Below are positions 1,587-6,747 of a stretch of 6,747 nucleotides of DNA, in pieces. Under the pieces are notes generated by a model. It saw nothing but the letters and a program-made list of their open reading frames with translations. It searched no databases and was not told where the DNA came from. The stretch lies in the NCBI RefSeq assembly GCF_050320075.1, contig NZ_CP190024.1, one strand, 5' to 3'. The stretch comes from Escherichia coli. Its GTDB lineage: Bacteria > Pseudomonadota > Gammaproteobacteria > Enterobacterales > Enterobacteriaceae. Numbering within the stretch: the first letter of the stretch is position 1; each line of letters opens with the position of its first letter. The position numbers were made by a program, and so were the translations under genes.

Positions 1587-3806
1587 ATGGCGATTTATCA
1601 TCTCAGCATGAAAATCATTTCGCGAAAAAACGGCTACAGTGCCGTTGCTTCTGCTGCCTACCGTTCCGGCTCTGTCATACCCGATGACCGTACCGGATTA
1701 ATCCACGATTACACCCGTAAACGCGGCGTTGATGATGCGGTCATTCTCACCCCTGCGAATGCACCGTCCTGGTGTGGTGACCGTTCCGTTCTCTGGAATG
1801 CGGTCGAGAAAGCCGAACAGCGCCGGAACTCCCAGCTGGCAAGGGAGATTGAACTCGCCATTCCCCGTGAGATTTCCCGCGAGGCCGCACGGGAGGCCGT
1901 TCTCGCTTTTGTCCGGGAAAACTTTGTCAGTCGGGGCATGATTGCCGATGTGGCGTTCCATCATATGGACCGGACCAACCCCCATGCACACATCATGCTG
2001 ACCACGAGAGCTGTCGGGGAAACGGGATTCGCAGGAAAGGTCAGGGACTGGAACGACCGGGCACTCGCCGAGACGTGGCGCGCATCATGGGCTGACCATG
2101 CGAACAGAGCGCTTGCGAACGCCGGCTACCAGGAAGAGATAGACCATCGTTCATACGAGCGTCAGGGACTGGAGAAAGCGCCGGGCCTTCACCTCGGAAA
2201 GGCTGCCTGTGCGATGGAAAAACGGGGCATGGAAACAGAACGCGGTGAGCAGAACCGCCTGATTAACAGCCTTAACCTGGAAATACAGGTTTCCCGCACA
2301 AGGCTGGCAGTCATCCAGGTACAGGAGAACGTGCGGAAACGGGAACTCAGCGATGCCGCACGTCGTGCAGCGGAAGCCCTTAATCTGACCATTCCCGCCG
2401 CGAATGCCTCAGCGGATACCCTGCGGGAATTCATTGCCACACTGCCGCAGGAATGCGGGAACGCATGGGAGATGACACCGGAGTTCGTGGCGATGAACGG
2501 GAAGGCAAACGACATCAAACGTGAGGGGAATGCGCTGGTGAAAGAGCGGGATATTCTCGAAAAAGAGATGACCGGACTCAGAAAATCCCGTCCGGTAGCG
2601 TCCATCCTGTCAGAGCTTCCCCTGATGACATGGGCTGAACCGGAATACCGCAAAAGACAACTCCGCTTCTGGAAACTCGAGAAACAGATTGAATCTCTTC
2701 TCCGCACCTACAGGGCCGTGAAAGAACGGGACATTCCCGCCCGTCGTCAGGCCTTTGAAACGCAGTGGAATACGTGGATTTCGCCGGGAATGGCAGAGCT
2801 GAAAGAAAAACTGTCAGCACGGGAAGCGGAGCGGCGCAGGGAGGAAGCCGAAGCGGAAGCGCGCCGGAAGGAACAGGAATATGACGCACGGCTGAAACAC
2901 CATGATAACCATCGCCTGAGCCGTGAAACGGCATTAGCCGGGGTTATTACGGAGCTGGGGCGTGCCAGAGAGCCGGGAACGGGCAGGATAACCCGCTACA
3001 TGATGCTGAGTAACAGAGCCGGAGAATTCACGGTATGGGGTGATGAGCTGGCGCATTACCCCCAGAGTGTTCATGACCCGGTGAATGTTTACCTGTCGCC
3101 AGGCGGGGCTGTGATGGTCTCGGATATACGTGAGAGAATGCCAGAATCTCATGAGACGATGGCGCGGCCTGAGCGTGTGAGAATGTATTCCGGTGCGACG
3201 GTCCGGCATGTACTGGAACAGATGCGCCAGGGGTGGCCCTCTTACGGTTTTCCGGCGCTGCCGCATCACTGGCCGGATAATTTTTATTTCAGCGACGACC
3301 GCAGGCCCGCAGCCTCTCCGCTGCCGTCAGCGCACCGGGTGGACGTCACCGCTTATGCGGCACCGGAGCAACTCATGCCCGTTGTCTTTTCGACAGAGCG
3401 AAACAGCAGGACGCTGAATCTGCTGTTGTGCGAAGGGCCGGAGGAAATGCTTGTCGGTTTTGTGCGCCTGGAGGACGAGCTGCGTCCCGTTCTTGCGCTT
3501 CCGTCGCCGGATTACAGTCATCTGATGGTAAGCATCATCACAGAGAACGGGATACACCTGGCAGGTTACGGTGAGGCCATAAACCGTGATGCTGATACTC
3601 CGTACCCACCGGAACCGAAGCTGATGCAGTTCAGGCTTAAGGGCTGTCAGGACACGCTTTTTGCTGCCATCAACAAACCGGAAGAGATGCCGGATTATCT
3701 CTTCCGTCAACTCGGATTTAATCAGACCTGGCATGAGTGGAAGCGGGAGGAACAGCGCAGGCAACAACAACGCCGTCCCGGGCACTTCCGGGGCATGAGT
3801 ATGTGA
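1587..3806 (+). CDS. mobA: MobA/MobL-family (MobQ) conjugative relaxase with a long C-terminal extension
   Basis: The ORF track starts at a GTG at 1500, but the in-frame ATG at 1587 gives the N-terminus MAIYHLSMKIISRKNGYSAVASAAYRSGS, typical of MobA relaxases (RSF1010 MobA starts MAIYHL) and placing the catalytic Tyr near the N-terminus. Histidine triad HHMDRTNPHAHIML. Stop TGA at 3804-3806. Residues from about 250 to 740 include a charged coiled-coil stretch and a C-terminal region I cannot assign to a domain by eye. Confidence 0.9.
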   Translation: MAIYHLSMKIISRKNGYSAVASAAYRSGSVIPDDRTGLIHDYTRKRGVDDAVILTPANAPSWCGDRSVLWNAVEKAEQRRNSQLAREIELAIPREISREAAREAVLAFVRENFVSRGMIADVAFHHMDRTNPHAHIMLTTRAVGETGFAGKVRDWNDRALAETWRASWADHANRALANAGYQEEIDHRSYERQGLEKAPGLHLGKAACAMEKRGMETERGEQNRLINSLNLEIQVSRTRLAVIQVQENVRKRELSDAARRAAEALNLTIPAANASADTLREFIATLPQECGNAWEMTPEFVAMNGKANDIKREGNALVKERDILEKEMTGLRKSRPVASILSELPLMTWAEPEYRKRQLRFWKLEKQIESLLRTYRAVKERDIPARRQAFETQWNTWISPGMAELKEKLSAREAERRREEAEAEARRKEQEYDARLKHHDNHRLSRETALAGVITELGRAREPGTGRITRYMMLSNRAGEFTVWGDELAHYPQSVHDPVNVYLSPGGAVMVSDIRERMPESHETMARPERVRMYSGATVRHVLEQMRQGWPSYGFPALPHHWPDNFYFSDDRRPAASPLPSAHRVDVTAYAAPEQLMPVVFSTERNSRTLNLLLCEGPEEMLVGFVRLEDELRPVLALPSPDYSHLMVSIITENGIHLAGYGEAINRDADTPYPPEPKLMQFRLKGCQDTLFAAINKPEEMPDYLFRQLGFNQTWHEWKREEQRRQQQRRPGHFRGMSM

Positions 3807-3844
3807 TGTCCGGGGCTGCACTCCGGACCCCGCCAACACATCAC

Positions 3845-3868
3845 GGGCCACAAAATTTTTTGTGGCCC
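3845..3868. terminator. Palindromic hairpin downstream of mobA (possible terminator/insulator before the colicin promoter)
   Basis: GGGCCACAAAATTTTTTGTGGCCC is a near-perfect palindrome with 11-bp arms, 39 bp after the mobA stop and upstream of the colicin promoter. No clean U-tract follows on the plus strand, so terminator function is uncertain. Confidence 0.4.
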
Positions 3869-3925
3869 GCTCTGCGTTTTCTAAGTGTTATCCCTCCTGA
3901 CTTCTAAAAAATTTTCCACCTGAAC

Positions 3926-3954
3926 TTGACAGAAAAAACGATGACGGGTACTTT
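3926..3954 (+). promoter_or_regulatory. Colicin operon sigma70 promoter (-35 TTGACA, -10 approximately TACTTT)
   Basis: Consensus -35 TTGACA at 3926-3931. After a 17-bp spacer a candidate -10 TACTTT at 3949-3954. An A/T-rich tract lies upstream (3905-3920) and the LexA operators immediately downstream, as in E-group colicin promoters. Confidence 0.65.
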
Positions 3955-3959
3955 TTGAT

Positions 3960-3990
3960 CTGTACATAAAACCAGTGGTTTTATGTACAG
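3960..3990 (+). promoter_or_regulatory. Tandem overlapping LexA (SOS) operators
   Basis: CTGTACATAAAACCAG (3960-3975) fits the LexA box consensus CTGT-N8-ACAG, and an overlapping second box ends in ATGTACAG (3983-3990). The whole element CTGTACATAAAACCAGTGGTTTTATGTACAG is the classic dual SOS box of colicin promoters. Confidence 0.85.
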
Positions 3991-4037
3991 TATTAATCAT
4001 GTAATTAATTGTTTTAACGCTTAAAAGAGGGACTTTT

Positions 4038-5786
4038 ATGAGCGGTGGAGATGGACGCGGCCATAACACGGGCGCGCATAGCACAAGTGGTAACATTAAT
4101 GGTGGCCCGACCGGGATTGGTGTAAGTGGTGGTGCTTCTGATGGTTCAGGATGGAGTTCGGAAAATAACCCGTGGGGTGGTGGTTCCGGTAGCGGCATTC
4201 ACTGGGGAGGTGGCTCCGGTCGTGGTAATGGCGGGGGTAATGGCAATTCCGGTGGTGGCTCGGGAACAGGCGGTAATTTGTCAGCAGTAGCTGCGCCAGT
4301 GGCATTTGGTTTTCCGGCGCTTTCCACTCCAGGAGCTGGCGGTCTGGCTGTCAGTATTTCTGCAAGCGAATTATCGGCAGCTATTGCTGGTATTATTGCT
4401 AAATTAAAAAAAGTAAATCTTAAATTCACTCCTTTTGGGGTTGTCTTATCTTCATTAATTCCGTCGGAAATAGCGAAAGATGACCCCAATATGATGTCAA
4501 AGATTGTGACGTCATTACCCGCAGATGATATTACTGAATCACCTGTCAGTTCATTACCTCTCGATAAGGCAACAGTAAACGTAAATGTTCGTGTTGTTGA
4601 TGATGTAAAAGACGAACGACAGAATATTTCGGTTGTTTCAGGTGTTCCGATGAGTGTTCCGGTGGTTGATGCAAAACCTACCGAACGTCCAGGTGTTTTT
4701 ACGGCATCAATTCCAGGTGCACCTGTTCTGAATATTTCAGTTAATAACAGTACGCCAGCAGTACAGACATTAAGCCCAGGTGTTACAAATAATACTGATA
4801 AGGATGTTCGCCCGGCAGGATTTACTCAGGGTGGTAATACCAGGGATGCAGTTATTCGATTCCCGAAGGACAGCGGTCATAATGCCGTATATGTTTCAGT
4901 GAGTGATGTTCTTAGTCCTGACCAGGTAAAACAACGTCAGGATGAAGAAAATCGCCGTCAGCAGGAATGGGATGCTACGCATCCGGTTGAAGCGGCTGAG
5001 CGAAATTATGAACGCGCGCGTGCAGAGCTGAATCAGGCAAATGAAGATGTTGCCAGAAATCAGGAGCGACAGGCTAAAGCTGTTCAGGTTTATAATTCGC
5101 GTAAAAGCGAACTTGATGCAGCGAATAAAACTCTTGCTGATGCAATAGCTGAAATAAAACAATTTAATCGATTTGCCCATGACCCAATGGCTGGCGGTCA
5201 CAGAATGTGGCAAATGGCCGGGCTTAAAGCTCAGCGGGCGCAGACGGATGTAAATAATAAGCAGGCTGCATTTGATGCTGCTGCAAAAGAGAAGTCAGAT
5301 GCTGATGCTGCATTAAGTGCCGCGCAGGAGCGCCGCAAACAGAAGGAAAATAAAGAAAAGGACGCTAAGGATAAATTAGATAAGGAGAGTAAACGGAATA
5401 AGCCAGGGAAGGCGACAGGTAAAGGTAAACCAGTTGGTGATAAATGGCTGGATGATGCAGGTAAAGATTCAGGAGCGCCAATTCCAGATCGCATTGCTGA
5501 TAAGTTGCGTGATAAAGAATTTAAAAACTTCGACGATTTTCGGAGAAAATTCTGGGAAGAAGTGTCGAAAGATCCTGAGTTAAGTAAGCAATTTAATCCA
5601 GGTAATAAAAAACGCTTGAGCCAAGGATTAGCTCCACGGGCTAGGAATAAAGATACTGTCGGTGGGCGTCGCTCATTTGAGCTTCATCACGACAAGCCAA
5701 TCAGTCAGGATGGTGGTGTTTATGATATGGACAACCTCCGTATCACTACGCCGAAACGCCATATTGATATTCACAGAGGTCAGTAA
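4038..5786 (+). CDS. col: E-group DNase colicin (BtuB/Tol-dependent, HNH nuclease C-terminus), most consistent with colicin E8-type
   Basis: 582-aa ORF with RBS GAGGG at 4026-4030. Glycine-rich N-terminal translocation domain containing the TolB box DGSGW (residues 35-39). Central coiled-coil region of the kind that forms the receptor-binding domain. C-terminal HNH/beta-beta-alpha-Me motif [34 protein letters not shown], diagnostic of the DNase colicins E2/E7/E8/E9. Subtype inferred from the adjacent immunity gene. Confidence 0.93.
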
Positions 5787-5788
5787 AA

Positions 5789-6046
5789 ATGGAACTGAAA
5801 AACAGCATTAGTGATTACACTGAAACTGAATTCAAAAAAATTATTGAAGACATCATCAATTGTGAAGGTGATGAAAAAAAACAGGATGATAACCTCGAGC
5901 ATTTTATAAGTGTTACTGAGCATCCTAGTGGTTCTGATCTGATTTATTACCCAGAAGGTAATAATGATGGTAGCCCTGAAGCTGTTATTAAAGAGATTAA
6001 AGAATGGCGAGCTGCTAACGGTAAGTCAGGATTTAAACAGGGCTGA
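5789..6046 (+). CDS. imm: DNase-colicin immunity protein (Im family), Im8-like
   Basis: 85-aa ORF starting 2 nt after the colicin stop, with RBS AGAGG inside the colicin 3' end. Conserved Im-family blocks [12 protein letters not shown]...[13 protein letters not shown]...[17 protein letters not shown]. The variable specificity region ([32 protein letters not shown]) matches my recollection of Im8 rather than Im2, Im7 or Im9. Confidence 0.93.
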
Positions 6047-6051
6047 AATAT

Positions 6052-6090
6052 GAATGCCAGTTGTTTAAGGATGAATGACTGGCATTCTTT
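6052..6090 (+). terminator. Hairpin between imm and lysis gene (partial read-through terminator)
   Basis: Perfect 10-bp inverted repeat GAATGCCAGT (6052-6061) / ACTGGCATTC (6078-6087) with a 16-nt loop, followed by TTT. It sits between imm and the lysis gene, where E-colicin operons have an attenuating terminator. Confidence 0.5.
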
Positions 6091-6107
6091 CACAACAAGG
6101 AGTCGTT

Positions 6108-6251
6108 ATGAAAAAAATAACAGGGATTATTTTATTGCTTCTTGCAGTCATTATTCTGGCTGCATGTCAGGCAAACTATATCCGGGATGTTCAGGGCGGG
6201 ACCGTATCTCCGTCATCAACAGCTGAAGTGACCGGATTAGCAACGCAGTAA
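6108..6251 (+). CDS. Colicin release / lysis lipoprotein (bacteriocin release protein)
   Basis: 47-aa ORF absent from the ORF track because of its length. [47 protein letters not shown] has a signal peptide and lipobox (LAAC, lipidated Cys at position 20), typical of colicin lysis proteins. Strong RBS AAGGAG at 6097-6102; last gene of the col-imm-lys operon. Confidence 0.9.
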
Positions 6252-6278
6252 CCCGAAATCCTCTTTGACAAAAACAAA

Positions 6279-6311
6279 GCGTGTCAGGCTGATTCTGATG
6301 CGCTTTTTTTT
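6279..6311 (+). terminator. Rho-independent terminator of the colicin operon
   Basis: Stem GCGTGTCAG (6279-6287) / CTGATGCGC (6295-6303) with a 7-nt loop and two G-U pairs, followed by T8 (6304-6311), just after the lysis gene stop. Confidence 0.75.
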
Positions 6312-6439
6312 GAAATGTCACAAAAGTTCCATGTGGGAGATGGGATCTAAAATCCCTGTGCAGAACCTTCCATCCGGTGGGAGAAAACTTGTCATTTTGA
6401 CCTGTTCGCCATTCGGAACGGTCGAAACCGATCGCGTAT

Positions 6440-6590
6440 CGCTTTCGTGCATAGTTATGCAGCGCCCTAAAAACGATTCTGACGCATTTTTCTGGTTCAG
6501 CCTGGTGTTTCCTTGTCTTTTTGCGTTTTTTGCGTCAGAACGCGTCTGAGAGCGTTTTAAGGGGTACGTACAACAGGAATTATGGTAAAT
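6440..6590. other. cer-like Xer (XerC/XerD) multimer-resolution site with upstream accessory sequences
   Basis: Core at 6563-6590: GGTACGTACAA-CAGGAA-TTATGGTAAAT. The XerD arm is identical, and the XerC arm has one mismatch, to ColE1 cer (GGTGCGTACAA-TTAAGGGA-TTATGGTAAAT) as I recall it. About 110 bp upstream is a palindrome with ARG-box geometry, TGCATAGTTATGCA (6449-6462), plus 9-bp inverted repeats TCTGACGCA (6478-6486) / TGCGTCAGA (6531-6539). Confidence 0.65.
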
Positions 6591-6644
6591 GGATCGGGTT
6601 TGCGGGAAGGATCGACAGGATTTGCCGTTGGGTGTAGTGTAAGC

Positions 6645-6745
6645 GACTGAAAAACAAACGCCCCTGAAATCATGTCCAGATCCGGCAAGATTCAACATGA
6701 AATACAGAGGGCGTGTAGGTCGCATAACCCGGAGAGAATCGTAAC
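6645..6745 (-). ncRNA. Candidate antisense copy-control RNA (RNAI-like) complementary to the rep mRNA leader
   Basis: In ColE2-type plasmids an approximately 115-nt antisense RNA complementary to the rep 5' UTR controls Rep translation. On the minus strand, if the molecule is circular, a promoter-like pair spans the junction: TTGAAG (complement of 13-18), 16-bp spacer, TACGAT (complement of 6738-6743). Downstream, imperfect stem arms (complement of 6705-6713 and 6659-6666) are followed by a T-rich tract, GTTTGTTTTTC. Ends are approximate. Confidence 0.35.
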
Positions 6746-6747
6746 AC

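Follow-up and report, generated by a model that had tools for sequence, protein, structure and literature searches.

The lysis gene of a pColE8-type plasmid from Escherichia coli and its flanking hairpins: a colicin E8 operon gene shorter than the ORF-length cut-off

The lysis gene of the colicin E8 operon, the sequence of its protein and the regulatory hairpins that flank it have been in the literature since the 1980s. Through this gene, colicin production kills the producer cell, and the gene also sets the timing of toxin release. In the ColE2 and ColE7 plasmids, one stem-loop, T1, is located upstream of the lysis gene (cel) and another, T2, downstream of it, and two transcripts are described, an abundant short mRNA covering cea and cei, and a rare long one that takes in cel as well (PMC5157957, PMC4353708, PMC2896534). 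The lysis proteins are lipoproteins of 47 residues with a 19-residue signal peptide, which are lipid-modified, processed and sorted by the Lol system to the outer membrane, and which bring about colicin release by activating phospholipase A there; those of E2, E3, E7 and DF13 are specifically described as diacylglyceryl-modified and cleaved by signal peptidase II in a globomycin-sensitive manner (PMC2896534). In ColE7, gel shift, in vivo and mutational analyses place CsrA on the loop of T1 (site BS1) and on a second site, BS2 (ACAAGGAGT), which covers the Shine-Dalgarno sequence, and CsrA represses translation of the lysis gene, with the level and the half-life of the mRNA unchanged (PMC2896534). 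The cei-cel regions of E2, E3 and E6 to E9 are almost 99% similar, and the same CsrA control has been hypothesised for all of them (PMC2896534).

The stretch of DNA analysed here (the window, 6,747 nucleotides) is a complete circular plasmid of the pColE8 type, written from the ATG of rep. It is 100% identical over 6747 bp to at least three plasmids, pACN001-D (NC_023325.1), NZ_CP063463.1 and NZ_CP129286.1, and 97.5% identical overall to pColE8 (NC_012882.1). The features of its colicin operon are collected in Table 1. The colicin, immunity and lysis genes are all encoded on the same strand, with lys as the last gene of the operon, and the immunity protein carries the accession WP_000421100.1 in pColE8 as well as in a window-identical plasmid. 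The colicin is longer than that of the reference pColE8 (573 residues), the sole difference among the aligned residues being a nine-residue indel, FDAAAKEKS, at residues 412-420 (about nt 5271-5297), in the coiled-coil receptor-binding region. As a matter of annotation, PGAP names this gene product 'colicin-E9' in the window-identical plasmids, though the immunity protein is common to pColE8.

The promoter of the operon is composed of a -35 element, TTGACA (3926-3931), a 17-nt spacer and a -10 element, TACTTT (3949-3954), and just downstream of the latter are two LexA boxes sharing one base (CTGTACATAAAACCAG at 3960-3975 and GTGGTTTTATGTACAG at 3975-3990), in agreement with the two LexA sites reported for the cea8 promoter (PMC4482635). 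A loose LexA pattern finds 26 matches in the whole window versus 15.6 expected, a number reached by 5 of 200 shuffles and not significant by itself, and the only matches we counted as meaningful are this tandem overlapping pair adjoining the -10 element, in line with the published description (PMC4482635). The operon layout and the tandem boxes together place col, imm and lys under SOS (LexA) control.

Table 1. Features of the colicin operon in the window (positions within the 6,747-nt stretch)
Feature	Position	Strand	Evidence
Operon SOS promoter	3926..3990	+	sequence read and pattern search
col (cea8), E-group DNase colicin, 582 aa	4038..5786	+	Pfam Cloacin, Pyocin_S, E2R135, Col-Pyo_DNase
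imm (cei8), DNase colicin immunity protein, 85 aa	5789..6046	+	Pfam PF01320, E 2.6e-30
T1 stem-loop, imm-lys intercistronic region	6052..6087	+	inverted repeat, folding, covariation
Shine-Dalgarno AAGGAG	6097..6102	+	5 nt before ATG 6108; read from sequence; within ACAAGGAGT (6095-6103)
lys (cel8), colicin E8 lysis (bacteriocin release) lipoprotein gene	6108..6251	+	translation, Pfam, exact match, lipobox rule
T2 intrinsic terminator, operon end	6276..6311	+	terminator scan, inverted repeat, folding

The translation of lys starts with ATG and runs through 47 codons to a TAA. Its product matches the Pfam family PF02402 (Lysis_col) over its entire length (73.6 bits, gathering score 27; E 1.1e-20; residues 1-47 on profile positions 1-49 of 49), and it is an exact match to UniProt LYS8_ECOLX, 'Lysis protein for colicin E8', and to RefSeq WP_001314446.1, while an NCBIfam scan of both the 47-residue protein and a 58-residue form considered below gave no match. 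In RefSeq, the same 144-nt CDS directly after the immunity gene is annotated as WP_001314446.1, 'colicin release lysis protein' (pColE8, pACN001-D). We found no evidence that contradicts the identification, and we hold it as practically certain that the ORF is lys of a pColE8-type plasmid, encoding the lysis or bacteriocin release protein and standing third in the SOS-induced operon cea8-cei8-cel8. Gene, protein sequence and hairpins are already known, and plasmids identical to the window carry the RefSeq annotation of the gene; as this is the well-known colicin E8 gene, with both T1 and T2 already described, the finding is correct but ordinary.

The ORF list for the region (6000-6330) was made with a default cut-off of 60 residues and does not contain lys, while a second list, made at 30 residues or more and holding 61 entries, shows the locus as an ORF of 58 residues, 6075..6251, from an in-frame ATG upstream of 6108. 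It follows that the first-pass annotation was correct in stating that lys, below the length threshold, had been missed by the ORF track. ORF callers with a 60-residue floor drop a gene of 47 codons, and the result matters only as a check on annotation. A minus-strand ORF that overlaps lys (6151..6321, 56 residues) belongs to no Pfam family, and was rejected as a gene.

The longer ORF raises the question of which ATG is used. A true product of 58 residues, extended at the N-terminus and starting within T1, would be compatible with the reading frame, which is open from ATG 6075, and one of the relatives, L005, also has an open in-frame upstream ATG. The rest of the evidence opposes this reading, to which we give hardly any credence: ATG 6075 has no correctly spaced Shine-Dalgarno sequence and is buried in the stem of T1, position 1 of the Pfam profile aligns to residue 1 of the 47-residue form, both RefSeq and UniProt have the shorter form, and the 11-residue extension would put the Lys-Lys n-region at an atypical position. 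In addition, in the relatives L006 and L010 (ColD) the upstream ATG is missing, out of frame or followed by an in-frame stop. A weaker version, in which T1 would melt, through read-through ribosomes or CsrA for example, expose ATG 6075 and give rise to a minor 58-residue Lys isoform with altered export kinetics, seems to us just as improbable: the support for it consists of the open reading frame, and ATG 6075 is not conserved in frame in L006 or ColD. If such an isoform did exist, T1 would couple transcription attenuation, CsrA binding and start-codon choice. We therefore continue with the 47-residue protein that starts at ATG 6108.

The signal sequence predicts that this protein is a lipoprotein. 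The precursor has a predicted signal peptide of residues 1-19 and a lipobox, LAAC (17-20), giving a mature form of 28 residues from Cys20. The assignment was made by a PROSITE-style rule, [LIVMFWSTAG]2-[LIVMFYSTAGCQ]-[AGS]-C with the six positions before the lipobox uncharged, the Cys at position 15 to 35 and a K or R among the first seven residues, which is satisfied by residues 10-20 with Cys20. The n-region is MKK, with two Lys residues, the hydrophobic core is 16 residues long with a mean Kyte-Doolittle value of 3.1, and among the 108 Met-starts in six frames of the whole window, Lys is the sole match to the rule. As to the first-pass annotation, its proposal of a 47-residue ORF with a strong ribosome-binding site and a lipobox agrees with the translation (47 residues and a stop), with AAGGAG 5 nt before the ATG and with LAAC, of which A19 and C20 are invariant in homologues. 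Its suggestion of homology to bacteriocin release proteins is confirmed by the full-length Lysis_col match and the identity to LYS8_ECOLX, and an alignment to colicin lysis proteins, which it had proposed as a check, reveals a conserved core, with 46 of 47 residues identical to the E2/E3 lysis protein. The notion that the gene completes a col-imm-lys operon likewise holds, lys lying on the same strand, directly after the colicin and immunity genes.

The two hairpins were examined by inverted-repeat search, folding and a terminator scan. T2 is a canonical intrinsic terminator after lys: a 13-pair stem (6276-6306) with a 5-nt loop is followed by a run of 8 T ending at 6311, with inverted-repeat arms within 6271-6311, and it is the strongest terminator-like site found by the scan in 3800-6747. 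The folding energy of its RNA is -20.6 kcal/mol (z = -4.4; 0 of 200 shuffles as stable), versus -15.5 for the minus strand. T1 begins 6 nt past the stop codon of imm (6044-6046) and has perfect arms of 10 nt (6052-6061 and 6078-6087). Its RNA forms 16 pairs, including G-U pairs, at -22.1 kcal/mol (z = -5.9; again 0 of 200 shuffles as stable), compared to -14.6 for the minus-strand RNA. Both thus fold better as plus-strand RNA, as G-U pairs become A-C mismatches on the minus strand, and this fits a function in the operon transcript. Searched against Rfam at E <= 1, the whole window showed no curated family for T1 or T2; its sub-threshold matches, C0719 (4727-4841) and sR28 (3325-3380), are away from both hairpins and were dismissed as chance. 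Also dismissed was a separate promoter for lys, as the candidate between T1 and lys (6089-6118, plus strand) matches at 9 of 12 positions, and the region holds 3 such matches versus 5.3 in shuffles.

T1 was not flagged by the consensus terminator scan; it has no U-tract, the stem being followed only by UUU (CUUUCACA), and that T1 terminates transcription here is therefore an extrapolation from the sister plasmids. On this basis, T1 is likely a partial terminator or attenuator, in agreement with the published ColE2 and ColE7 work. The first-pass annotation had placed hairpins at 6052-6087 and 6279-6311 and had read them as attenuated read-through into lys followed by a strong terminator. The hairpins themselves are substantiated, the first by its perfect 10-nt arms and z of -5.9 and the second by the stem at 6276-6306 with its T run and z of -4.4, and the coordinates given for them and for the ORF were right to within a few bases. 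Of the regulatory reading, the strong terminator stands, T2 being canonical by the scan, while read-through at T1 comes from the ColE2/ColE7 literature and not from the sequence alone.

Comparison with relatives allows for a further view of both the protein and T1. A blastn search with 6030-6330 as a query returned 1131 plasmid records, nearly all of them, among the matches listed, annotated as 'colicin release lysis protein'. Eight relatives were chosen: one plasmid of the E2 type, one that is E3-like and has a second immunity gene, cloacin-like ones (E. coli, Shigella, Klebsiella) and ColD. Their Lys proteins are 62-94% identical to that of the window, and M1, K2, K3, A19, C20 and the core QANY.RDVQGGT..PSS are invariant in the alignment (6-7 homologues). 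A hairpin is present just upstream of lys in each relative's operon, with stem sequences that vary. T2 is kept in the relatives with a ColE2 replicon, with a G-U to G-C change, and the ColE1-type Klebsiella and ColD plasmids have a different hairpin in its place. One side observation is a degenerate lys homologue in the large conjugative IncK2/Z plasmid pSTEC401_1 (CP061248.1; L007:1232-1414), annotated as 60 residues, which has lost the MKK start (its translation opens with IYKEQYEKITG...) and ends in a different, longer C-terminus, and which still has the upstream hairpin.

Covariation in T1 was scored for the ten inner pairs in an alignment of eight leaders from divergent operons; the outer pairs (6052-6057 with 6082-6087) were left out, as indels shift the columns in the cloacin-like sequences, but single-sequence folds still give each of the cloacin-like leaders an extended stem. 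The inner pairs are formed in 98.8% of the cells, and 3 of the 10 pairs have changes on both sides, versus 24-49% of cells paired in controls with the 3' partner slid by 1-3 columns, and T1 is therefore conserved as a structure. These data also speak to the most skeptical reading, that lys is a small ORF open by chance, flanked by inverted repeats that are just as accidental. ORFs and inverted repeats of short length are indeed common, the 61 ORFs of at least 30 residues being a case in point, but we consider this reading as already refuted, by the full-length family match with an E of 1e-20, by the identity of Lys to a curated protein, by more than 1000 plasmid records that conserve the region, with the lysis protein annotation among the matches listed, by the failure of any of 200 shuffles to fold as well as T1 or T2, and by the compensatory changes in T1.

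One further layer, absent from the first-pass annotation, is the presence of CsrA motifs in the loop of T1 and at the ribosome-binding site. The sequence over the ribosome-binding site, 6095-6103, is verbatim the BS2 site of ColE7, and a GGA at 6069-6071, near the apex of T1 and within AAGGAUGA, corresponds to BS1, so that the window possesses the two GGA motifs of a CsrA-repressed leader, one near the apex of a hairpin and the other over the Shine-Dalgarno sequence. The loop of T1 in the minimum-free-energy fold is AAGG, and so the GGA is only partly unpaired. By analogy with ColE7, CsrA would be expected to repress the E8 lys as well.

These motifs give some substance to another reading of T1, namely that it is mainly a docking site for CsrA and an mRNA-stability element, protecting the 3' end of the col-imm mRNA, rather than a terminator, and that low expression of lys is mostly translational. 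It would account for the lack of a U-tract and of a terminator call, for GGAUGA near the apex being kept in 7 of 8 aligned operons, and it is in line with ColE7, where CsrA binding to the T1 loop results in translational repression at an unchanged mRNA level (PMC2896534). However, the ColE2 and ColE7 papers report both a short and a long mRNA and call T1 a transcriptional terminator, and ColD, the one operon with GUAUAA instead of GGAUGA, keeps the hairpin with GUA replacing the loop GGA, so that conservation of the structure does not depend on the CsrA motif. Taken as a replacement for termination, this reading is unlikely, if by no means as far-fetched as a 58-residue product, and the two roles are not mutually exclusive. 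Partial termination at T1 remains our preferred reading.

Based on work on ColE2, ColE3, ColE7 and cloacin DF13, the operon would be expected to function as follows. Cleavage of LexA would allow for transcription from the promoter near 3926-3990. Most transcripts would stop at T1, supporting synthesis of colicin and immunity protein, and a minority would pass T1 into lys and stop at T2. On the long mRNA, CsrA, bound at the apical GGA of T1 and at ACAAGGAGT over the Shine-Dalgarno sequence, would further restrain the translation of lys. The 47-residue precursor would be exported via Sec, receive a lipid at Cys20 and be cleaved by signal peptidase II, and mature Lys, with Gln at position +2, would be sorted to the outer membrane, where it may activate phospholipase A, leading to quasi-lysis and to release of the colicin-immunity complex.

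Some observations concern other parts of the plasmid. Two ORFs of at least 60 residues adjoin lys, 6265-6549 (plus strand) and 6318-6725 (minus strand), and both are unannotated in the RefSeq twins. Neither has a credible Pfam family, one having no match and the other a sub-threshold match to MBD (14.7 bits, cut-off 21), both probably being spurious reading frames of the non-coding stretch that separates T2 from rep. In the interval that separates the end of mobQ, the relaxase gene, from the colicin promoter, a near-perfect palindrome (3845-3868; GGGCCACAAAA / TTTTGTGGCCC) could serve as a terminator or be bound by a protein. The Rep protein has the Pfam Replicase and PriCT_1 domains, and just 3' of the rep stop codon, at about 943-957, is TATCAGATAACAGCG, which resembles the ColE2-type minimal origin, itself located directly downstream of rep. 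Divergent from mobQ is an ORF of 91 residues on the minus strand (1133-1408; MSRTLEQKIAEAEARLQRLKAK...), a hypothetical protein in RefSeq, whose Pfam matches are sub-threshold only (Relaxase_C, E 0.028), and which may be a mobilisation accessory protein.

When placed among the known systems, the locus is nearest to that of colicin E8 itself. The lysis protein of pColE8-J (celH/cel8, NC_012882.1; LYS8_ECOLX; WP_001314446.1) shares 47 of 47 residues with Lys of the window, the gene is in the same place after imm8, and a stretch of 701 bp covering the end of col, imm, lys and T2 (5700-6400) is 100% identical. The lysis protein of colicins E2 and E3 (LYS2_ECOLX, CelB/hic) is identical at 46 of 47 residues, and its single substitution, A18S, makes the lipobox LSAC in E2/E3 as opposed to LAAC in the window; in ColE2, the genes follow the same order, with T1 and T2 at the same places (PMC5157957, PMC4353708). 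The leader of ColE7 cel shares with the window the verbatim BS2 and the GGA near the apex of T1, and it is in ColE7 alone that CsrA binding and repression have been measured. More distant are the bacteriocin release proteins of cloacin DF13 and klebicin, and the lysis protein of colicin D, which belong to the same Pfam family and have the same A19, C20 and QANY.RDVQGGT core as Lys of the window, at 62-68% protein identity and with longer or different signal peptides. In these operons a hairpin upstream of lys is found in the same register as T1, while the downstream terminator is a different hairpin, belonging to a ColE1-type replicon. In ColD (pNE1092-4, L010:1177-1247), the hairpin upstream of lys is kept and is longer (-29.1 kcal/mol), and its loop, AAGUAUAA, lacks the GGA of BS1, while ACAAGGAG at the ribosome-binding site is kept.
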